Positions 3,283-23,529 of a DNA stretch of 64,000 nt are shown piece after piece. Below the pieces are notes generated by a model. The model did not search any database. It saw nothing but the letters and a program-made list of their open reading frames with translations, and had not been told where the DNA came from. Origin of the DNA: Escherichia coli (lineage in GTDB: Bacteria; Pseudomonadota; Gammaproteobacteria; Enterobacterales; Enterobacteriaceae); the NCBI RefSeq assembly GCF_024502345.1, contig NZ_JALDNN010000001.1. One strand, given 5' to 3'. The position numbers and the translations under genes were made by a program. Within the stretch, counting starts at the first letter, position 1. Each line of letters starts with the position of its first letter.

Positions 3283-3421
3283 TGCGCGCTGGCGGTGGTG
3301 CTGATTTTATTTTTTCAGCGTCTGAGCGCGTCGTGAAGGCGTTTACTTGGCCTGCTGGGCGTTGGTGTGTCTGCGGGGTGTTTTGTGCGGTGGTGAGCGT
3401 GTGAGGGCGTGATGGCGGGGT

Positions 3422-3449
3422 GTAAAAAAGCCGCCCGCAGGCGGCGATG
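3422..3449 (-). terminator. Rho-independent terminator downstream of Q (minus strand)
   Basis: Minus strand reads gccgcctgcgggcggc hairpin followed by a T-run immediately after the Q stop. Confidence 0.55.
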
Positions 3450-3450
3450 T

Positions 3451-4485
3451 TCAGCCGTTGTCAGTGTCCAGTGAGTAGTTTTTAAAGCGGATGACCTCCT
3501 GACCGAGCCAGCCGTTTATCTCGCGGATCCTGTCCTGTAACGGGATAAGCTCATTGCGGACAAAGACCTTTGCCACTTTCTCTATATCACCCAGCGACCC
3601 GACGTTCTCCGGCTTGCCACCCATCAACTGAAAGGGGATGCGGTGCGCGTCCAGCAGGTCTGCGGCGCTGGCTTTTTTGATATTAAAAAAATCATCCTTC
3701 GTTGCCACTTCACTGAGCGGGATAATTTTAATGCCGTCGGCTTTCCCTTGTGGGGCATAGAGAAACAGGTTTTTAAAGTTGTTGCGGCCTTTCGACTTCA
3801 CCATGTTTTCGCGGAGCATTTCGATATCGTTGCGATCCTGCACGGCATCGGTGACGTACATGATGTATCCGGCATGTGCGCCGTTTTCGTAATACTTGCG
3901 GCGGAACAGCGTGGCCGACTCATTCAGCCAGGCAGAGTTAAGGGCGCTGAGATATTCCGGCAGGCCGTACAGCTCCTGATTAATATCCGGCTCCAGCAGG
4001 TGAAACACGGAGCCGGGCGCGAAAGGTGTCGGCTCATGGAAGGACGGCACCCACCAGTAAACATCCTCTTCCACGCCACGGCGGGTATATTTTGCCGGTG
4101 AGGTTTCCAGTCTGATGACCTTACCGGTGGTGCTGTAACGCTTTTCCAGAAACGCATTACCGAACACCAGAAAATCCAGCACAAAGCGGCTGAAATCCTG
4201 CTGGGAAAGCCACGGATGCGGGATAAATGTCGAGGCCAGAATATTGCGTTTGACGTAAATCGGCGAGCTGTGATGCACGGCAGCACGCAGGCTTTTCGCC
4301 AGACCGGTAAAGCTGACCGGCGGCTCATACCATCTGCCGTTACTGATGCACTCGACGTAATCCAGAATGTCACGGCGGTCGAGTACCGGCACCGGCTCAC
4401 CAAAGGTGAATGCCTCCATTTTCGGGGCGCTGGCGGTCATTTTTTTTGCCGCAGGTTGCGGTGTTTTCCCTTTTTTCTTACTCAT
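3451..4485 (-). CDS. Q: P2 gpQ portal protein (344 aa)
   Basis: 344 aa, same length as P2 Q; position next to cos and terminase P; stop overlaps P region. Confidence 0.9.
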   Translation of the reverse strand: MSKKKGKTPQPAAKKMTASAPKMEAFTFGEPVPVLDRRDILDYVECISNGRWYEPPVSFTGLAKSLRAAVHHSSPIYVKRNILASTFIPHPWLSQQDFSRFVLDFLVFGNAFLEKRYSTTGKVIRLETSPAKYTRRGVEEDVYWWVPSFHEPTPFAPGSVFHLLEPDINQELYGLPEYLSALNSAWLNESATLFRRKYYENGAHAGYIMYVTDAVQDRNDIEMLRENMVKSKGRNNFKNLFLYAPQGKADGIKIIPLSEVATKDDFFNIKKASAADLLDAHRIPFQLMGGKPENVGSLGDIEKVAKVFVRNELIPLQDRIREINGWLGQEVIRFKNYSLDTDNG

Positions 4486-7343: not shown

Positions 7344-8417
7344 ATGCGCCAGGAAACCCGCTTTAAATTTAATGCCTATCTGTCCCGTGTTGCCGAACTG
7401 AACGGCATCGACGCCGGTGATGTGTCGAAAAAATTCACCGTTGAACCGTCGGTCACCCAGACCCTGATGAACACCATGCAGGAGTCCTCTGATTTTCTGA
7501 CCCGCATCAACATTGTGCCGGTCAGCGAAATGAAAGGGGAAAAAATTGGCATCGGTGTCACCGGCTCCATCGCCAGCACCACCGACACCGCCGGTGGCAC
7601 CGAGCGTCAGCCGAAGGACTTCTCGAAGCTGGCGTCAAACAAGTACGAATGCGACCAGATTAACTTCGATTTTTATATCCGCTACAAAACGCTGGACCTG
7701 TGGGCGCGTTATCAGGATTTCCAGCTCCGTGTCCGTAATGCCATTATCAAACGCCAGTCCCTTGATTTAATCATGGCCGGTTTTAACGGCGTGAGGCGTG
7801 CCGAAACCTCTGACCGCAGCAGTAACCCGATGCTGCAGGATGTGGCGGTCGGCTGGCTGCAGAAATACCGCAATGAAGCCCCGGCGCGCGTGATGAGCAA
7901 GGTTACTGACGAGGAAGGTCACACGACCTCTGAGGTCATCCGCGTGGGTAAGGGCGGTGATTATGCCAGCCTCGATGCACTGGTGATGGATGCGACCAAC
8001 AACCTGATTGAGCCGTGGTATCAGGAAGACCCTGACCTTGTGGTGATTGTGGGGCGTCAGCTACTGGCGGACAAGTATTTCCCCATCGTTAACAAGGAGC
8101 AGGACAACAGCGAAATGCTGGCCGCTGACGTCATCATCAGCCAGAAACGCATCGGTAACCTGCCGGCGGTACGCGTCCCGTACTTCCCGGCGGATGCGAT
8201 GCTCATCACGAAGCTGGAAAACCTGTCCATCTACTACATGGATGACAGCCATCGCCGCGTGATTGTGGAAAACCCGAAACTCGACCGCGTGGAGAACTAC
8301 GAGTCAATGAACATTGATTACGTGGTGGAAGACTACGCCGCCGGTTGTCTGGTGGAAAAAATTAAGGTCGGTGATTTCTCCACACCGGCTAAGGCGACCG
8401 CAGAGCCGGGAGCGTAA
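7344..8417 (+). CDS. N: P2 gpN major capsid protein (357 aa)
   Basis: 357 aa, P2 N size and position after O. Confidence 0.9.
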   Translation: MRQETRFKFNAYLSRVAELNGIDAGDVSKKFTVEPSVTQTLMNTMQESSDFLTRINIVPVSEMKGEKIGIGVTGSIASTTDTAGGTERQPKDFSKLASNKYECDQINFDFYIRYKTLDLWARYQDFQLRVRNAIIKRQSLDLIMAGFNGVRRAETSDRSSNPMLQDVAVGWLQKYRNEAPARVMSKVTDEEGHTTSEVIRVGKGGDYASLDALVMDATNNLIEPWYQEDPDLVVIVGRQLLADKYFPIVNKEQDNSEMLAADVIISQKRIGNLPAVRVPYFPADAMLITKLENLSIYYMDDSHRRVIVENPKLDRVENYESMNIDYVVEDYAAGCLVEKIKVGDFSTPAKATAEPGA

Positions 8418-8420
8418 CCG

Positions 8421-9164
8421 ATGACGAGTCCCGCACAGCGCCACATGATGCGGGTCTCGGCAGCGATGACCGCGCAGCGGGAAGCCGCCCCGCTGCGACA
8501 TGCAACTGTCTATGAGCAGATGCTGGTTAAGCTCGCCGCAGACCAGCGCACACTGAAAGCGATTTATTCAAAAGAGCTGAAGGCCGCAAAAAAACGCGAA
8601 CTGCTGCCGTTCTGGTTGCCGTGGGTGAACGGCGTGCTGGAGCAGGGCAAAGGTGCACAGGATGACATTCTGATGACGGTCATGCTGTGGCGTCTGGATA
8701 CCGGCGATATTGCCGGTGCGCTGGAGATTGCCCGTTATGCCCTGAAATACGGCCTGGCCATGCCGGGGAAACACCGCCGTACCCCGCCGTACATGTTCAC
8801 CGAGGAGGTGGCGCTTGCTGCCATGCGCGCTCACGCTGCCGGTGAGTCTGTGGATACCCGCCTGCTGACGGACACCCTTGAACTGACCGCCACGGCTGAC
8901 ATGCCTGATGAAGTGCGCGCAAAGCTGCACAAAATCACCGGTCTGTTTCTGCGTGACGCTGGTGATGCCGCAGGTGCGCTGGCGCATCTGCAACGTGCGA
9001 CACAGCTCGACTGTCAGGCAGGCGTCAAAAAAGAGATTGAACGACTGGAGCGGGAGCTGAAACCGAAGCCGGAGCCGCAGCCCAAAGCGGTCACCCGCGC
9101 CCCGCGTAAGACACGGAGCGTGACACCGGCAAAACGTGGACGCCCGAAAAAGAAAGCCAGTTAA
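8421..9164 (+). CDS. M: P2 gpM terminase small/endonuclease subunit (247 aa)
   Basis: 247 aa, position after N; basic C-terminal tail. Confidence 0.9.
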   Translation: MTSPAQRHMMRVSAAMTAQREAAPLRHATVYEQMLVKLAADQRTLKAIYSKELKAAKKRELLPFWLPWVNGVLEQGKGAQDDILMTVMLWRLDTGDIAGALEIARYALKYGLAMPGKHRRTPPYMFTEEVALAAMRAHAAGESVDTRLLTDTLELTATADMPDEVRAKLHKITGLFLRDAGDAAGALAHLQRATQLDCQAGVKKEIERLERELKPKPEPQPKAVTRAPRKTRSVTPAKRGRPKKKAS

Positions 9165-9263: not shown

Positions 9264-9773
9264 ATGATGACGCTGATTATTCCGCGAAAGGAGGCTCCCG
9301 TGTCCGGTGAGGGTACGGTGGTCATCCCGCAACCGGCAGGCGACGAGCCGGTGATTAAAAACACGTTCTTTTTTCCCGATATCGACCCGAAGCGCGTCCG
9401 GGAACGTATGCGCCTTGAGCAGACCGTCGCCCCCGCCCGTCTGCGTGAGGCCATCAAGTCAGGCATGGCTGAAACGAATGCGGAGCTGTACGAGTACCGC
9501 GAACAGAAAATTGCCGCCGGTTTTACGCGTCTGGCGGACGTCCCGGCGGACGACATCGACGGTGAAAGCATCAAAGTTTTTTACTACGAGCGCGCCGTGT
9601 GTGCGATGGCGACCGCGTCGCTTTATGAGCGTTATCGCGGCGTGGATGCCAGTGCGAAAGGCGACAAGAAGGCTGACAGCATTGACAGCACCATTGATGA
9701 GCTGTGGCGGGATATGCGCTGGGCGGTGGCGCGCATCCAGGGCAAGCCGCGCTGCATCGTGAGTCAAATCTGA
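9264..9773 (+). CDS. L: P2 gpL capsid completion protein (169 aa)
   Basis: Start placed at MMTLIIPRKEAP within ORF 9204-9773. Confidence 0.85.
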   Translation: MMTLIIPRKEAPVSGEGTVVIPQPAGDEPVIKNTFFFPDIDPKRVRERMRLEQTVAPARLREAIKSGMAETNAELYEYREQKIAAGFTRLADVPADDIDGESIKVFYYERAVCAMATASLYERYRGVDASAKGDKKADSIDSTIDELWRDMRWAVARIQGKPRCIVSQI

Positions 9774-9976
9774 TGAAGACCTTTGCGCTACAGGGCGACA
9801 CGCTCGACGCCATTTGTGTCCGGTATTACGGGCGCACTGAGGGCGTGGTTGAGACCGTGCTCGCCGCAAATTCGGGACTGGCTGAACTGGGGGCGGTGCT
9901 GCCACATGGCACCGCCGTCGAACTGCCCGACGTTCAGACCGCGCCCGTGGCTGAAACTGTCAATCTGTGGGAGTAA
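9773..9976 (+). CDS. X: P2 gpX tail protein X (67 aa)
   Basis: MKTFALQGDTLDAI...; ATGA overlap with L stop; P2 X is 67 aa. Confidence 0.85.
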   Translation: MKTFALQGDTLDAICVRYYGRTEGVVETVLAANSGLAELGAVLPHGTAVELPDVQTAPVAETVNLWE

Positions 9977-9979
9977 CGC

Positions 9980-10261
9980 ATGACAGCAGAAGAAAAAAGC
10001 GTCCTGTCGCTTTTCATGATTGGGGTGCTGATTGTTGTCGGCAAGGTGCTTGCCGGTGGTGAACCCATCACCCCGCGTCTGTTTATCGGGCGCATGTTGC
10101 TCGGTGGTTTTGTCTCGATGGTTGCCGGTGTTGTTCTGGTGCAGTTTCCTGACCTGTCACTGCCTGCGGTGTGCGGCATCGGCTCCATGCTGGGTATCGC
10201 CGGTTATCAGGTGATTGAGATTGCCATTCAGCGCCGCTTTAAGGGCAGGGGGAAACAGTAA
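9980..10261 (+). CDS. Y: P2 gpY holin (93 aa)
   Basis: 93 aa with hydrophobic transmembrane segments and charged C-terminus; first gene of lysis cassette. Confidence 0.9.
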   Translation: MTAEEKSVLSLFMIGVLIVVGKVLAGGEPITPRLFIGRMLLGGFVSMVAGVVLVQFPDLSLPAVCGIGSMLGIAGYQVIEIAIQRRFKGRGKQ

Positions 10262-10758
10262 TGCCGGAAATTAACACGCATCAGAATATCGCCGCCTTTC
10301 TCGACATGCTGGCGGTGTCCGAAGGGACGGCAAATCATCCGCTGACGAAAAACCGGGGCTATGACGTGATAGTCACCGGACTGGACGGGAAGCCGGAAAT
10401 TTTCACCGACTACAGTGACCACCCGTTCGCGCATGGCCGACCGGCGAAGGTGTTTAACCGTCGCGGTGAAAAGTCCACGGCCTCCGGTCGCTATCAGCAG
10501 CTTTACCTGTTCTGGCCGCACTACCGCAAACAGCTTGCCCTGCCGGATTTCAGTCCGTTGTCACAGGACAGACTCGCCATTCAGTTGATCCGCGAACGCG
10601 GTGCACTGGATGACATCCGGGCGGGACGCATTGAGCGCGCCATTTCACGCTGTCGCAATATCTGGGCGTCCCTGCCGGGTGCCGGTTACGGTCAGCGTGA
10701 GCATTCACTGGAAAAACTGGTCACCGTCTGGCGTACCGCTGGCGGCGCACCGGCTTAA
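10261..10758 (+). CDS. K: P2 gpK endolysin (165 aa)
   Basis: 165 aa, follows holin with overlapping stop/start. Confidence 0.9.
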   Translation: MPEINTHQNIAAFLDMLAVSEGTANHPLTKNRGYDVIVTGLDGKPEIFTDYSDHPFAHGRPAKVFNRRGEKSTASGRYQQLYLFWPHYRKQLALPDFSPLSQDRLAIQLIRERGALDDIRAGRIERAISRCRNIWASLPGAGYGQREHSLEKLVTVWRTAGGAPA

Positions 10759-10772
10759 ACGGAGTAAACACC

Positions 10773-11198
10773 ATGAAAAAATTATCCCTTTCACTGATGC
10801 TGCACGTGTCGCTGGCGCTGATGCTGGCACTGTCCCTGATTTACCCGCAGAGCGTGGCCGTCAGTTTTGTCGCTGCCTGGGCGATTCTGGCGACGGTTAT
10901 CTGTGTGGTTGCCGGTGGTGTCGGCGTGTATGCCACGGAGTATGTACTGGAACGCTACGGACGGGAGCTGCCGCCGGAATCGCTGGCCGTGAAGATTGTC
11001 ACGTCGCTGTTTTTGCAGCCGGTGCCGTGGCGCAGACGGGCAGTAGCTCTGGTGGTGATGGTGGCGACATTTATCTCGCTGGTCGCTGCCGGGTGGATTT
11101 TTACCGCGCTGATTTATCTCGTGGCATCGGTGTTCTTCCGGCTGATACGTACGGCCTGCCGTCAGCGTTTTGAGGGGCGGGAAACATGTCAAGGCTGA
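10773..11198 (+). CDS. lysA: P2 LysA lysis timing protein, membrane (141 aa)
   Basis: 141 aa, multiple hydrophobic helices, follows K. Confidence 0.85.
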   Translation: MKKLSLSLMLHVSLALMLALSLIYPQSVAVSFVAAWAILATVICVVAGGVGVYATEYVLERYGRELPPESLAVKIVTSLFLQPVPWRRRAVALVVMVATFISLVAAGWIFTALIYLVASVFFRLIRTACRQRFEGRETCQG

Positions 11199-11611
11199 TG
11201 ATTGTGCTGGTCGTGTTGTTATCGCTGGCGGTGGCGGGTCTGTTTCTGGCGAAGCATAAAAACGCCAGCCTGCGCGCCTCACTGGACAGGGCGAACAGCG
11301 TCGCCAGCGGGCAGCAGACGACCATCACCATGCTGAAAAATCAGCTTCATGTTGCGCTCACCAGGGCAGACAAAAACGAGCTGGCGCAGGTGGCACTGCG
11401 TCAGGAACTGGAGAACGCCGCGAAGCGTGAAGCACAGCGCGAGAAAACCATCACGAGGTTACTTAATGAAAACGAGGATTTTCGCCGCTGGTACGGTGCT
11501 GACCTGCCTGATGCTGTGCGCCGGTTGCACCAGCGTCCGGCCTGCACCGACGCCAGTGATTGTCCACAACGCCTGCCCGAAAGTGAGCCTTTGCCCGATG
11601 CCGGGCAGTGA
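11186..11611 (+). CDS. lysB: P2 LysB, Rz-like spanin component (141 aa)
   Basis: 141 aa, N-terminal transmembrane anchor then coiled-coil-like region. Confidence 0.85.
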   Translation: MSRLMIVLVVLLSLAVAGLFLAKHKNASLRASLDRANSVASGQQTTITMLKNQLHVALTRADKNELAQVALRQELENAAKREAQREKTITRLLNENEDFRRWYGADLPDAVRRLHQRPACTDASDCPQRLPESEPLPDAGQ

Positions 11612-11756
11612 TCCGGAGACGAACGGCGATTTAAGTGCTGATATCCGGCAGCTTGAGAACGCGCTGGCACGCTGTGCCAGCCAGGTAAAAATGATTAAAC
11701 ACTGTCAGGACGAAAACGATGCTCAAACCCGACAGCCTGCGCAGGGCGCTGACTGA
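11466..11756 (+). CDS. lysC: P2 LysC, Rz1-like lipoprotein encoded in alternate frame overlapping lysB and R (96 aa)
   Basis: MKTRIFAAGTVLTCLMLCAGC has a signal peptide with lipobox; embedded in the lysB 3' end in another frame. Confidence 0.75.
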   Translation: MKTRIFAAGTVLTCLMLCAGCTSVRPAPTPVIVHNACPKVSLCPMPGSDPETNGDLSADIRQLENALARCASQVKMIKHCQDENDAQTRQPAQGAD

Positions 11757-12186
11757 TGCCGTCACGGTGCTGAAAACTAACCCCGATATGCTGCGGATAT
11801 TCGTGGATAACGGGAGTATTGCCTCCACACTGGCGGCGTCGTTGTCATTCGAAAAGCGTTACACGCTCAATGTGATTGTGACCGACTTTACCGGTGATTT
11901 TGACCTGCTCATCGTGCCGGTGCTGGCGTGGCTGCGGGAAAATCAGCCCGACATCATGACCACCGACGCAGGCCAGAAAAAGGGCTTCACGTTTTATGCA
12001 GACATCAACAATGACAGCAGCTTTGATATCAGCATCAGCCTGATGCTGACCGAGCGCACGCTGGTCAGTGAGGTGGACGGCGCGCTGCATGTGAAGAATA
12101 TCCCGGAACCTCTGCCGCCGGAGCCGGTCACCCGCCCGATGGAGCTGTATATCAATGGCGAACTGGTGAGCAAGTGGGATGAATGA
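11719..12186 (+). CDS. R: P2 gpR tail completion protein (155 aa)
   Basis: 155 aa, position after lysis genes. Confidence 0.85.
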   Translation: MLKPDSLRRALTDAVTVLKTNPDMLRIFVDNGSIASTLAASLSFEKRYTLNVIVTDFTGDFDLLIVPVLAWLRENQPDIMTTDAGQKKGFTFYADINNDSSFDISISLMLTERTLVSEVDGALHVKNIPEPLPPEPVTRPMELYINGELVSKWDE

Positions 12187-12637
12187 GTTTAAGCGTTTTG
12201 AAGACCGGCTGACCGGACTTATTGAATCGCTGTCACCGTCAGGGCGTCGGCGACTGGCGGTAGATATTGCGAAGAAACTGCGCCAGCGCCAGCAGCAGCG
12301 AATTAAATTACAAAAAGCCCCGGATGGTACGCCGTATGTACCGAGAAAAAACCAGCCAGTGCGAAATAAGAAAGGCCGGATAAAGCGGGAAATGTTTGCG
12401 AAATTACGCACAAACCGATTTATGAAAGCAACAGGTAGCGAGAGTGCGGCTGTGGTGGAGTTTGCCAGCGGAGTACAACGAATTGCGAGAGTACATCAAT
12501 TAGGGCTTAGGGATAAGCCGGGGCGTAATAGTGCTGTGGTGGAATATCCTGTTCGTGAGTTATTAGGTTTTGACAAGGAATCTATACAATTGATAGAAAA
12601 GGAGTTATTAGTGATTCTATCGAAAGATGTTATATGA
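12179..12637 (+). CDS. S: P2 gpS tail completion protein (152 aa), 3' part AT-rich/mosaic
   Basis: MNEFKRFEDRLTGLIESLSPSGRRRL N-terminus; composition turns AT-rich in 3' third. Confidence 0.85.
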   Translation: MNEFKRFEDRLTGLIESLSPSGRRRLAVDIAKKLRQRQQQRIKLQKAPDGTPYVPRKNQPVRNKKGRIKREMFAKLRTNRFMKATGSESAAVVEFASGVQRIARVHQLGLRDKPGRNSAVVEYPVRELLGFDKESIQLIEKELLVILSKDVI

Positions 12638-13389
12638 GATGGGTGTTTGTGGATAAAAAATTTTCCATTTTGAGAAAAAGAGTAAAGCATTCTCAAAAGA
12701 AAGTTATGGATTGTATTATTGCTGACCATAATGCTGATGTATGTGTGTTATGCGGGAGTTCTGACGATATTACTCGTGAGCACATTATTCCTCAGTGGGC
12801 CTTTGAGTCAAATGCTGAAAAACTTTTAATTAATAAAAAGAATAATCAGTCAACTCATTACATCAAAGCCACTGTACCAGCATGCAGAGTGTGCAATTCT
12901 GATTTGCTGGGAGCGTTTGAGTATAACCTGAAGAAATTTCTTACGGAAAAGAGGGGCGATGAGTTAACAGATTATGAATATGATTGCATCATATGGTGGT
13001 TGCAATACATGGGCTTTAAGTTGCAATTAATGGATTTACGGACCCGCTTTCTCAGGTATAAAGGGGGGGATTATATCCCTTTCCTTGCAAACTTCCCGGT
13101 TGCAATGTTTTGGGGGAATGTCGATACGACACCGGAGGATGTCTTCAGGATTATAAGAAAATCGCGACGCAATCTGATGTCGAAATGGAAGGATAAAAAA
13201 CATAATTCTTTGATGGTTTTTGAAACATCAAACAAGAGTTTTCATTTCTTTCATAAGGTTGATGAATTTATTTTTATTGAAATGCCTCAGGTTAAGAAGG
13301 CGTTTTTCTTCTTTTTTAATAAAGAATTTGACAGCCATGATTTAGCTCATGAGGAGTGTATGAAGATTATAGAGAAGTGCTACAACTAA
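12634..13389 (+). CDS. Accessory protein with HNH-type nuclease motif (251 aa), inserted between S and V
   Basis: CVLCGSSDDITREHIIPQWAF ... ATVPACRVCNSDL resembles a CxxC...H...N...CxxC HNH core; strongly AT-rich; ATG overlaps S stop (ATGA). Confidence 0.6.
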   Translation: MRWVFVDKKFSILRKRVKHSQKKVMDCIIADHNADVCVLCGSSDDITREHIIPQWAFESNAEKLLINKKNNQSTHYIKATVPACRVCNSDLLGAFEYNLKKFLTEKRGDELTDYEYDCIIWWLQYMGFKLQLMDLRTRFLRYKGGDYIPFLANFPVAMFWGNVDTTPEDVFRIIRKSRRNLMSKWKDKKHNSLMVFETSNKSFHFFHKVDEFIFIEMPQVKKAFFFFFNKEFDSHDLAHEECMKIIEKCYN

Positions 13390-18214: not shown

Positions 18215-18742
18215 ATGCAGCATTTGATAAATATAATGGCAGGTAATCCAAAAACGGTTGAACAATATCAATTGACAAAGGACTTTGATGTTGTCTGGTT
18301 TTTTTCAGAAGATGGTAAGAACTGGTACGAAGAACAAAAGTATTTTGCTGATGACACGATAAAAATAGCGTACGACAAAGATAATATTATCCGCTATGTG
18401 GAAAAGGATGTGACAGCTATCAGACCGGATGGATTAAGTGTTGTTGAAGTGCCGGATATTACTGCTAACCGACGGGCGGACATTTCAGGGAACTGGATGT
18501 TTAAGGACGGTACAGTGATTAAACGAATTTATACGGCAGAGGAATTGCAGCAGCAGGCAGAAAATCGGAAAGCCAGACTTCTTGCAGATGCTGAATCCGT
18601 GATTTTGCCGCTGGAGCGCGCTGTCAGGCTGAATATGGCAACAGATGAGGAGCGCAGTCGACTGGAGGCATGGGAACGCTACAGTGTTCTGGTCAGTCGT
18701 GTGGATCCTGCAAATCCTGAATGGCCGGAAATGCCGCAATAA
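18215..18742 (+). CDS. G: P2 gpG tail fiber assembly chaperone (175 aa)
   Basis: 175 aa, immediately after H. Confidence 0.85.
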
Positions 18743-19877: not shown

Positions 19878-21692
19878 TCACTTCTTACATAGAATGCTGG
19901 GTTTTACTCCGTACTCAACACATGCACTCAAAAATGTATTTATAAGCCAGATTAGCTGAACAGTATAAGGTTTGGCTGACTGATTTCTCTTGATGATTTC
20001 CACCTCATCGATTAACATTTTTTTTCTTAAAAATGGAGCAGCTAATATTAACTCCCTACTAGTTTTCGGACTCTCATTAATTTTGTCAAGAGCTAACTCA
20101 ATGTCATTCCTGGAAGTGTCAATTGGTCTAATTCTACTAATCTGCGTTTGTAAATATTTTGAAGACCATTCATTATCATATTTATCAAGGTAAAGTTCTT
20201 TTGGTGAATGTAATCTGCCAATATTTTTTAAAGCTTGACTTATAACTTCATGAAATTTACTGGCGCCATAGCTCTCTTTTTTAATATATTTAGAATGAAT
20301 AAACTTTATGGATGGATTTCCTGTCGTGATATCCAGCACAATATGATCGGCCCACTCATCATTCATATCATCACAAATTACAATAGCATCTTTATTTGAA
20401 TAGATATTCTCCACTCGTCTAAATAGCGATCTCACTGGAAATCTTTTAATATTTTCTGGATAAGATTGTTTGTCATCTTTCTCTTTTTCCGATCTGATTG
20501 TTGAAAAATCAAAGCTATCATCAAAAACGGACAGGAAAATATTCAAATTATTTAACATCGTTTTATCTTCAAAACACGAACGACCATGATAGCAATATTG
20601 GGGGGAATCGAAGGTTATAGTGAATGGCTTAAACTTGTTAATATATTTACTAAGCGACATTAACTGAGAACCATTTTCACTAATCATTATACCATCGAGA
20701 TATTTGGATACTATAGTCACAACCTTAGTATTGAATCTCAGACGACATTTGAATTTGAATCTTAAATTGGTTAGCGTTTCACCATCTAAGAAATATGATG
20801 ATTTAAATCCATTGAAAAATTTGTCAAGTTCAACAGAACTTAACGTCACCGTTCCATGAGGCACATTTTTTGTTAGTGTAAAAGTATGGGACGTGCCACG
20901 CACCATATCATCCAACTCGCTAAGATCTATAAAAATAGCTTTTGGCTTGACTTTTTTTGCTAATAATTCACTCAAAGTAATAGGGGAAGAGAAACCTGCC
21001 ATTAGCTTACTTGACAAAGAGGCTGTGTTAGATAATTCATTTACTGTAGCTATTGCCCATGAGCAGAAATTAAAAAAATCCACTTTTTTATCTTTGTAGC
21101 CTATTCGTGAAGTATTTGGTGTTAAAGTAAATATGTCATTTCCTGTCTTGACTCTAAATGTCCCTGGAATTGAACGTCCAGTCGTGTTAGGAGAAAGAAT
21201 GCCACTTAGATTTTTTGCTTCCACTGTTCTATTTCTTATCACTGAATCTGACAGTGACATATTCCTCATGCTAATTTTTTCATACTCAGGATTCAGCCTT
21301 CCATTAAAATTTGAAAATTTATCAAACTCAAAGTATTCTATGAACCTTTCCAACTCGCTTTCAATTGCATCAACATTTTTCTTCGAAATTATTAAAAAAT
21401 CCTGAACCTCCAAGATCATTAGATACGCATACTTGCTTTCTGAAATGCTAGTGCCTTGTAGAAATGAAGGCTCTTCTAGAACTTTAAAAGACACCAAAGA
21501 GTAAGTTAAATTCCCATTATCTACAACAACTTCAGATTTAATTTTATTTATAAGAAAGACACCATCTTTTATCGAGGATATGCTTCTAAATAGATTTTTT
21601 ATTTTATTTCTAGATAAAGGTTTTTTTATCTTAAAAAATTGTGCATTTTTTGATAAAATTAAATCATTGATACTGAAAATATATTTAGTCAC
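19878..21692 (-). CDS. Orphan AT-rich protein of unknown function (604 aa), prophage hotspot cargo
   Basis: Long uninterrupted ORF in very AT-rich DNA; GTG start 8 nt after AAGGA; no Walker A, no YxDD box, no HNH seen by eye; C-terminal segment AIVICDDMNDEWADHIVLD...IKFIHSKY could be a nuclease-like acidic/basic cluster. Confidence 0.6.
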   Translation of the reverse strand: MTKYIFSINDLILSKNAQFFKIKKPLSRNKIKNLFRSISSIKDGVFLINKIKSEVVVDNGNLTYSLVSFKVLEEPSFLQGTSISESKYAYLMILEVQDFLIISKKNVDAIESELERFIEYFEFDKFSNFNGRLNPEYEKISMRNMSLSDSVIRNRTVEAKNLSGILSPNTTGRSIPGTFRVKTGNDIFTLTPNTSRIGYKDKKVDFFNFCSWAIATVNELSNTASLSSKLMAGFSSPITLSELLAKKVKPKAIFIDLSELDDMVRGTSHTFTLTKNVPHGTVTLSSVELDKFFNGFKSSYFLDGETLTNLRFKFKCRLRFNTKVVTIVSKYLDGIMISENGSQLMSLSKYINKFKPFTITFDSPQYCYHGRSCFEDKTMLNNLNIFLSVFDDSFDFSTIRSEKEKDDKQSYPENIKRFPVRSLFRRVENIYSNKDAIVICDDMNDEWADHIVLDITTGNPSIKFIHSKYIKKESYGASKFHEVISQALKNIGRLHSPKELYLDKYDNEWSSKYLQTQISRIRPIDTSRNDIELALDKINESPKTSRELILAAPFLRKKMLIDEVEIIKRNQSAKPYTVQLIWLINTFLSACVEYGVKPSILCKK

Positions 21693-22338: not shown

Positions 22339-23529
22339 ATGAGTGACTATCATCACGGCGTGCAGGTGCTGGAGATTAACGACGGCACCCGCGTCATTTC
22401 CACCGTATCCACTGCCATTGTCGGCATGGTCTGTACGGCCAGCGATGCAGATGCGGAAACCTTCCCCCTCAATAAACCGGTGTTGATTACCAATGTGCAG
22501 AGCGCAATTGCAAAGGCCGGTAAAAAAGGCACGCTGGCGGCATCGTTGCAGGCCATCGCTGACCAGTCAAAACCGGTCACCGTTGTCGTGCGCGTGGAAG
22601 ACGGCACCGGTGATGACGAGGAAACGAAACTCGCGCAGACCGTTTCCAATATCATCGGCACCACCGACGAAAACGGTCAGTACACCGGACTGAAAGCCCT
22701 GCTGGCGGCGGAGTCGGTAACCGGTGTTAAACCGCGTATTCTCGGCGTGCCGGGACTGGACACCAAAGAGGTGGCTGTTGCACTGGCATCAGTCTGTCAG
22801 AAGCTGCGCGCTTTCGGGTATATCAGCGCATGGGGCTGTAAAACTATTTCCGAGGTGAAAGCCTACCGCCAGAATTTCAGCCAGCGTGAGTTGATGGTCA
22901 TCTGGCCGGATTACCTCGCATGGGATACGGTCACCAGTACCACCGCCACCGCGTATGCCACCGCCCGTGCGCTGGGTCTGCGCGCTAAAATCGACCAGGA
23001 GCAGGGCTGGCATAAAACACTGTCCAACGTTGGGGTGAACGGTGTTACCGGCATCAGCGCATCTGTATTCTGGGATTTGCAGGAGTCCGGCACCGATGCT
23101 GACCTGCTGAATGAGTCAGGCGTCACAACGCTGATTCGCCGTGACGGTTTCCGCTTCTGGGGTAACCGTACCTGCTCTGATGACCCGCTGTTCCTCTTTG
23201 AAAACTACACCCGCACCGCGCAGGTACTGGCCGACACGATGGCTGAGGCGCACATGTGGGCGGTGGACAAGCCCATCACCGCAACGCTGATTCGCGACAT
23301 CGTTGACGGCATCAATGCCAAATTCCGTGAGCTGAAAACAAACGGTTATATCGTGGATGCGACCTGCTGGTTCAGCGAAGAATCCAACGATGCGGAAACC
23401 CTCAAGGCCGGAAAACTGTATATCGACTATGACTATACACCGGTGCCTCCTCTCGAAAACCTGACCCTGCGCCAGCGTATTACCGATAAATACCTGGCGA
23501 ATCTGGTCACCCCGGTTAACAGCAATTAA
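22339..23529 (+). CDS. FI: P2 gpFI tail sheath protein (396 aa)
   Basis: 396 aa, size and position. Confidence 0.9.
   Translation: MSDYHHGVQVLEINDGTRVISTVSTAIVGMVCTASDADAETFPLNKPVLITNVQSAIAKAGKKGTLAASLQAIADQSKPVTVVVRVEDGTGDDEETKLAQTVSNIIGTTDENGQYTGLKALLAAESVTGVKPRILGVPGLDTKEVAVALASVCQKLRAFGYISAWGCKTISEVKAYRQNFSQRELMVIWPDYLAWDTVTSTTATAYATARALGLRAKIDQEQGWHKTLSNVGVNGVTGISASVFWDLQESGTDADLLNESGVTTLIRRDGFRFWGNRTCSDDPLFLFENYTRTAQVLADTMAEAHMWAVDKPITATLIRDIVDGINAKFRELKTNGYIVDATCWFSEESNDAETLKAGKLYIDYDYTPVPPLENLTLRQRITDKYLANLVTPVNSN

Follow-up and report, generated by a model that had tools for sequence, protein, structure and literature searches.

Our analysis indicates that the open reading frame (ORF) at positions 11466-11756 on the + strand of the window (the whole 64,000-nucleotide stretch of Escherichia coli DNA that was analysed) is very probably lysC of a P2-like (Peduovirus) prophage, the o-spanin half of a two-component LysB/LysC spanin, overlapped with both lysB and R. 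The data establish the gene, its start, its frame relations, the purifying selection on it, its membrane-targeting signals and its lysis-cassette context. As judged from the comparative sequence data presented here, lysC has its own translation start, an ATG with a GAGG Shine-Dalgarno (SD) sequence, inside lysB in the +1 frame.

Position and architecture of lysC

The gene begins with ATG (11466-11468), ends with TGA (11754-11756) and has 96 codons. Its N-terminus is MKTRIFAAGTVLTCLMLCAGC, and both the ORF and the translation quoted in the sequence-only reading matched exactly. That reading had described lysC as hidden in a longer 135-aa frame, and a mechanical 135-aa ORF (11349-11756) does indeed contain lysC as its 3′ two-thirds. 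It had also placed lysC out of frame across the lysB-R junction, which agrees with our coordinates: lysC is +1 relative to lysB (11186-11611), with 146 nt common to both, and R (11719-12186) is in turn +1 relative to lysC and shares its last 38 nt. The remaining 107 nt of lysC (11612-11718) are coded by no other gene.

The features of lysC, all on the + strand, are as follows.

11455-11458, +: GAGG SD sequence of lysC, 7 nt 5′ of the ATG (best anti-SD duplex, conservation, SpaninDB).
11466-11756, +: lysC, 96-aa o-spanin, predicted outer-membrane lipoprotein precursor (ORF, PF23793, NF038368, match to P2 NP_757382.1).
11466-11525, +: predicted LysC signal peptide, residues 1-20, with n-region MKTR and h-region IFAAGTVLTCLMLCAG (K2/R4, hydropathy, model, SpaninDB).
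11514-11528, +: LysC lipobox L17-C18-A19-G20 and putative lipid-acceptor Cys21, codon 11526-11528 (alignment of 64 sequences).
11466-11611, +: lysB/lysC dual-coding stretch of 146 nt, LysB residues 94-141 and LysC residues 1-49 (reduced diversity at all codon positions).
11612-11718, +: lysC-only stretch (third-position diversity excess in the lysC frame).
11663-11681, +: perfect 8-bp hairpin GCTGGCAC-GCT-GTGCCAGC within the lysC-only stretch (position, folding).
11719-11756, +: overlap of the lysC 3′ end with the R start, 38 nt (ORF coordinates).

The sequence-only reading had also called this an Rz/Rz1-style embedded spanin arrangement, and this part has to be corrected. LysC is encoded by an overlapped and not an embedded gene, because it starts inside lysB in another frame yet ends 145 nt past the lysB stop, in R. 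In the lambda-type embedded arrangement the o-spanin gene lies wholly within the i-spanin gene; here 145 of the 291 nt of lysC, half of the gene, lie beyond the lysB stop, and the embedded (lambda Rz1-type) architecture was ruled out. P2 is regarded as the paradigm of the overlapped two-component spanin class (Kongari 2018, PMC6139136), an architecture credited to Summer 2007 and Kongari 2018 (PMC6139136). The P2 lysC start has been described as +1 within lysB and its stop as lying in R, in contrast to lambda (Lynch 2010, PMC3091744). The PGAP note on lysC of E. coli MZ1211 likewise reads "not fully embedded".

The lysis cassette

The cassette order is Y, K, lysA, lysB, lysC, R, S, as in P2. 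All of these are on the + strand and are late "O operon" genes, at about 9.7-14 kb of the window. The holin, endolysin and lysA genes lie immediately 5′ of lysB/lysC, which is the context of a lysis cassette.

9773-9976, +: X (position).
9980-10261, +: Y, holin (PF04550, 143.6 bits; phrog_175).
10261-10758, +: K, endolysin (phrog_90; position of P2 gene K; PGAP glycoside hydrolase family 24 in E. coli MZ1211).
10773-11198, +: lysA, multi-pass membrane protein affecting lysis timing (NF038378, 122 bits; P2 lysA position).
11186-11611, +: lysB, 141-aa i-spanin with an N-terminal transmembrane anchor and a periplasmic domain (TIGR03495; phrog_89, Rz-like spanin).
11719-12186, +: R, tail completion/tail terminator protein (PF06891, 154 bits).
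12179-12637, +: S (PF05069).

The lysA gene is labelled "endolysin" in PHROG and INPHARED-derived annotations, and by sequence it codes for a hydrophobic membrane protein. This label looks like a propagated misnomer. The P2 record describes lysA as "nonessential; affects timing of lysis", and its product has been termed an antiholin (PMC3091744).

Start codon and selection on the reading frames

The lysC region was compared across 12 Peduoviridae loci, namely the window and 11 loci at 70-98% DNA identity (P2, Wphi, R18C, 186, PSP3, SEN1, PHB48, EtG, MDG94-186, Kp4884-2, and YenM201.16), which cover the genera Peduovirus, Eganvirus, and Duonihilunusvirus. In all 12, lysC is +1 to lysB, overlaps it by 146-164 nt, runs 133-157 nt beyond the lysB stop and enters R. 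The start at 11466 proposed in the sequence-only reading was borne out, with both the ATG and its SD conserved in 12/12 loci. In every locus the distance from the ATG to the lipid Cys is exactly 20 codons, and this Cys is itself kept in all of them. The motif ACGAGGTTACT precedes the lysC ATG in 12/12 loci, in the variant form AAAGGTTACT in YenM201.16. The anti-SD duplex predicted for the 11466 start has an energy of −6.6 kcal/mol, the best among four candidate starts tested in this frame, and the same SD is marked in SpaninDB.

Nucleotide diversity among the loci follows the proposed frames. In the lysB-only part (11186-11465) it was 0.44 at third positions and 0.28 at positions 1+2, a periodicity in the lysB frame (p=1e-7). 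In the lysC-only stretch (11612-11718) it was 0.378 at third positions versus 0.137 at positions 1+2 in the lysC frame (p=7e-7), and no such periodicity was found there in the other two frames. In the lysB/lysC overlap (11466-11608) diversity was 0.12-0.21 at all three phases, with a mean of 0.175 versus 0.33 upstream. Such low diversity, with no free wobble position, is as expected if both frames are constrained. In the lysC/R overlap the pattern of variation is that of the R frame, and the tail of LysC (residues 85-96) is its least conserved part (0.54).

Signal peptide, lipobox and dual coding

The N-terminus of LysC has the make-up of a lipoprotein signal: a basic n-region (K2 and R4), a hydrophobic h-region (mean Kyte-Doolittle value of 2.06 over residues 5-20), a small residue at −1, and a Cys within residues 15-35. 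Conservation was assessed on 64 full-length LysC sequences, the query and 63 homologues. Cys21 is present in 63/64 of these and the −1 residue is G, A or S in all 64. The +2 residue is Thr in 64/64 and the Asp retention signal is absent, and therefore sorting to the outer membrane is implied. SpaninDB (Young laboratory) gives the P2-family o-spanin the same layout, namely 96 aa, of which 20 form the signal and 76 the mature protein, with four cysteines in the periplasm, and places it in class "ovl".

The sequence-only reading had spoken of a textbook lipobox. There is a lipobox, with G20-C21, and it is near the consensus; "textbook" goes too far, as the Cys at −3 makes L-C-A-G-C fail PROSITE PS51257 at this one position. 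It also misses the consensus [LVI][ASTVI][GAS]C, as quoted in PMC6139136, at one position. The −3 residue is Cys in 62/64 sequences and Ser in the other 2/64. The Cys is likewise found in LysC of P2 and close relatives, and is accepted by SpaninDB.

The codon of this residue, Cys18 (TGC, 11517-11519), takes its first two bases from the end of the LysB Val111 codon (GTG) and its third from the start of the Arg112 codon (CGC). The LysB V111-R112 pair (11516-11521) is inside the most conserved motif of LysB, PDAVRRLH. Among the loci compared, LysC has Cys at −3 in each one whose LysB retains Val-Arg. The sole locus with Val-Ile in LysB (GTT ATC), YenM201.16, has the consensus lipobox L-S-G-C in LysC. 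These codon relations suggest that the −3 Cys may be a by-product of dual coding and not a feature selected in LysC, an interpretation to which we give about an even chance.

Mature LysC and its LysB partner

Mature LysC would have 76 aa and 10.5% Pro, with seven of its eight prolines within the first 30 residues. Its cysteines C37, C43, C70, and C80 are each kept in 62-64 of the 64 sequences. An AlphaFold model of LysC from a 44-sequence alignment (mean pLDDT 71) predicted a helix at residues 8-18 (the signal), an extended part at 22-50, and a single long helix at 56-89 with pLDDT 80-92, and Cys70 and Cys80 are on this last helix in the model.

LysB scored 173 bits against TIGR03495 (phage_LysB equivalog), whose cut-off is 92.75. 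It has a single hydrophobic segment (residues 4-22, Kyte-Doolittle value of 2.99), and later segments never rise above 0.08. LysB therefore shows the single N-terminal transmembrane segment and periplasmic domain of an i-spanin partner. It has cysteines C120 and C126, so both members of the LysB/LysC pair carry periplasmic cysteines. Neither the LysC profile nor LysB gave more than chance-level matches in PDB sequence searches (E >= 0.14), and no solved structure was found for either family.

Family identity and comparison with known systems

LysC matched the NCBIfam equivalog model NF038368 (P2_Rz1, Rz1-like lysis system protein LysC; cut-off 27) with 127.2 bits and E=2e-37, and Pfam PF23793 (LysC; cut-off 27) with 62.3 bits and E=4e-17. 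It also matched PHROG "Rz-like spanin" families. The window DNA in this region is 96-98% identical to many Peduovirus genomes. The 801 nt around lysC are present in 1612/5426 complete E. coli genomes, in which PGAP names the gene lysC.

These scores (127 and 62 bits), together with 94% identity to P2 LysC (NP_757382.1; both proteins have 96 aa), upheld the name lysC given in the sequence-only reading. The two LysC proteins differ by six conservative substitutions (K2R, R4K, V24A, R25P, H34P, and E51Q), and the LysB proteins of P2 and the window are 98% identical. In the P2 record, lysB is at 7922-8347, lysC at 8202-8492, and R at 8455-8922, with lengths and offsets equal to those of the window. 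Both have a lysB to lysC offset of 280 nt, the +1 frame, a 146-nt overlap, and 38 nt of lysC in R. They also share the start context ACGAGGTTACTTAATG, the internal hairpin, and the flanking genes Y-K-lysA-lysB and R-S. The cargo of the window prophage differs from that of P2 at the S-V and G-FI loci.

More distant relatives, 186 Orf28, PSP3 orf12, and other LysC proteins of Eganvirus and Duonihilunusvirus, are 46-71% identical to LysC of the window. Like it, they are overlapped, in the +1 frame, share 146-158 nt with lysB and extend into the R homologue. The start, the SD, the lipid Cys, the four conserved cysteines, and an NGDLSADI motif are all kept in them.

Lambda Rz1 resembles LysC in being a small proline-rich outer-membrane lipoprotein, encoded +1 in the i-spanin gene at the end of the cassette, with a type II inner-membrane partner and periplasmic cysteines (PMC6139136). 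However, lambda Rz1 is wholly embedded in Rz, whereas lysC extends 145 nt past lysB. LysC also differs from Rz1 in its longer mature form (76 aa), in having just 10.5% Pro, and in its long predicted C-terminal helix. LysC did not match the lambda Rz1 Pfam family at E up to 0.01, PF23793 being its sole Pfam match, and by these searches no sequence homology between LysC and lambda Rz1 is detectable. The lipoprotein nature of the product and the functional analogy to Rz1, both proposed in the sequence-only reading, are supported by the family models and the conserved lipid Cys. By this analogy LysC would work like lambda Rz1, yet it belongs to the P2 LysC family, in the overlapped class.

Alternative readings

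Three other readings concern which frame or start is used. The gene might be the full 135-aa ORF from ATG 11349, with a 39-residue extension before the signal sequence; this frame is open from 11349 in the window, P2, and R18C, with 43 open codons 5′ of the lysC ATG. However, a stop codon interrupts this frame 0-4 codons 5′ of the lysC ATG in 7/12 loci (Wphi, EtG, 186, PSP3, PHB48, SEN1, and MDG94-186), and therefore the 135-aa form is not the gene. The 11349 start has no SD (+0.4 kcal/mol), and the NCBIfam match starts only at residue 44 of the long form. Between 11349 and 11465 third-position diversity was found in the lysB frame (p=2e-5) but not in the lysC frame (p=0.96), and as the pattern tracks lysB and not lysC, the 11466 coordinates are right. 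With upstream stops in relatives, a missing SD and lysB periodicity all against it, the long form was rejected, and we consider its probability close to nil. A chance alternative-frame ORF with no protein product has just as little probability. Long spurious ORFs of this kind are common in this region of 57% GC, where dozens were listed. But the curated HMM scores of lysC are far over their cut-offs, periodicity in the lysC frame is present in the 107 nt coded by no other gene, and the start, SD, lipobox Cys, and four other cysteines are kept down to 46% identity. These comparative data already refute the chance-ORF reading. According to the third reading, the real product is an 81-aa form from Met16 (ATG 11511), which would stay soluble in the cytoplasm as a "lysis regulator" instead of being a lipoprotein. 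It is the form annotated by RefSeq/PGAP in E. coli MZ1211, where lysC has 246 nt, and among the 120 homologues listed, 25 have it, starting MLCAGC. Yet the Met16 ATG is not conserved, being ACG in MDG94-186 and CTG in YenM201.16, and its SD is weak (−3.0 versus −6.6 kcal/mol at 11466). Residues 1-15 are conserved as protein, with M1, K2, A7, and G9 at >=90%, and the 96-aa form is the one found in the P2 RefSeq record and in the manual curation of the Young laboratory (SpaninDB). Misidentified start codons have been described as a general problem in spanin identification (Kongari 2018, PMC6139136). The Met16 form has just five residues ahead of Cys21. As this start is not conserved and leaves no signal peptide, we ruled it out as the start of lysC; that it gives the real product is very improbable.

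It might also be supposed that LysC and LysB are mainly regulators of lysis timing and not a membrane-fusing spanin. The P2 record describes lysB as "nonessential; affects timing of lysis" and lysC as "non-essential; regulation of lysis", and "lysis regulatory protein" is still used in several phage records. However, a timing phenotype is itself compatible with loss of a spanin, and the topology signals are those of a pair of inner-membrane and outer-membrane proteins. P2 lysB and lysC, when co-expressed, reportedly complement lambda Rz/Rz1 null mutants (Markov et al. 2004), which speaks against this reading. The current curated names are Rz-like and Rz1-like, and P2 is used as the paradigm two-component spanin (PMC6139136). 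A mainly regulatory role is thus most unlikely. The same entries in the P2 record bear on the sequence-only reading, which had proposed that lack of a lysis defect in a mutant would refute the assignment; for genes recorded as non-essential and affecting lysis timing or regulation this test is too strict. In lambda, spanin defects are evident only in millimolar divalent cations.

Proposed mechanism

The steps of the mechanism were drawn from established spanin biology, that of lambda Rz/Rz1 (PMC6139136), and by analogy with it we infer lipidation, sorting, and membrane fusion by the LysC of the window copy. The 96-aa precursor would be exported by Sec, lipidated on Cys21 and cut by signal peptidase II after Gly20. 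Since Thr, rather than Asp, occupies position +2, LysC would then be handed to the Lol system and delivered to the outer membrane, in its inner leaflet. In the mature 76-aa protein, which has four conserved cysteines, an extended linker rich in proline would lead into a long helix at the C-terminus. Homotypic disulfides through these cysteines are likely, again by analogy.

LysC would bind the periplasmic domain of LysB, which would be held in the inner membrane by its one N-terminal transmembrane helix. Because LysC in the outer membrane would bind a LysB anchored in the inner membrane, the complex would span the periplasm, passing through the peptidoglycan mesh. When the holin Y frees the endolysin K and the wall is degraded, the spanin complexes would become mobile and undergo a conformational change. 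As the last step of lysis, they would fuse the two membranes, inner and outer, or disrupt them.

The internal hairpin and other features of the prophage

The hairpin at 11663-11681 is at the position at which the P2 record places a "putative transcription attenuator; O operon". It folds as predicted, although in its context it gains no stability over shuffled sequences (z = −0.98). A T tract is lacking, and a terminator scan did not call the hairpin. Given the terminator scan and the z value, we make no claim of an attenuator function for it.

A 604-aa ORF on the − strand (19878-21692) was found in an island of 33% GC (about 18.8-22.2 kb), between the P2 tail genes G (18215-18742) and FI (22339-23529). 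We take this slot to be the Z/fun position in the P2 gene order. Over its full length the ORF matched PDC-S71, a candidate defence protein in PADLOC (726 bits), and no Pfam domain was found in the ORF.

A second ORF, of 251 aa on the + strand (12634-13389), is in a lower-GC stretch between S and V. It occupies the slot of the non-essential P2 orf30, on the strand opposite to that of orf30. It matched phrog_10503 (unknown function) over its full length, gave only sub-threshold hints of HNH_5 and Endonuclease_1, and had no match in the PADLOC scan. It is probably prophage cargo of unknown function.

The window starts inside the P2 replication gene A (1-2277, PF05840) and therefore lacks the left part of the prophage. 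At its right end (about 28.6-31.3 kb) the prophage adjoins ogrK, a ParD/ParE-family toxin-antitoxin pair, and yegQ/trhP of an E. coli-like chromosome. In this region the best identity to E. coli was 98.7%.

Public annotation and significance

The lysC gene of the window is an already described gene of a common prophage and is ordinary, and the finding itself is of little weight. P2 lysC is the textbook example of overlapped spanin pairs, and it was reportedly defined genetically through P2 gor mutants by Markov et al. 2004 (J Bacteriol 186:4628).

In public annotations, lysC is frequently shortened at the N-terminus, to 81 aa (PGAP, from Met16) or 52 aa (several phage records), or is left out. 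The lysC coordinates concerned are 3412-3657 in locus L012, 2199-2357 in L001, 1009-1167 in each of L006, L007, L008, and L009, and 911-1225 in L010. In the Yersinia phage vB_YenM_201.16 lysC is unannotated, though the phage has a 104-aa ORF whose lipobox reads L-S-G-C.

The practical value of this analysis is in annotation. Shortened forms of lysC drop the signal peptide that defines the protein, and the comparative evidence favours the 96-aa form chosen in the sequence-only reading. If the −3 Cys is indeed a by-product of dual coding, the P2 family would be a clean natural example of an overlapping frame keeping a lipoprotein sorting signal off its optimum.
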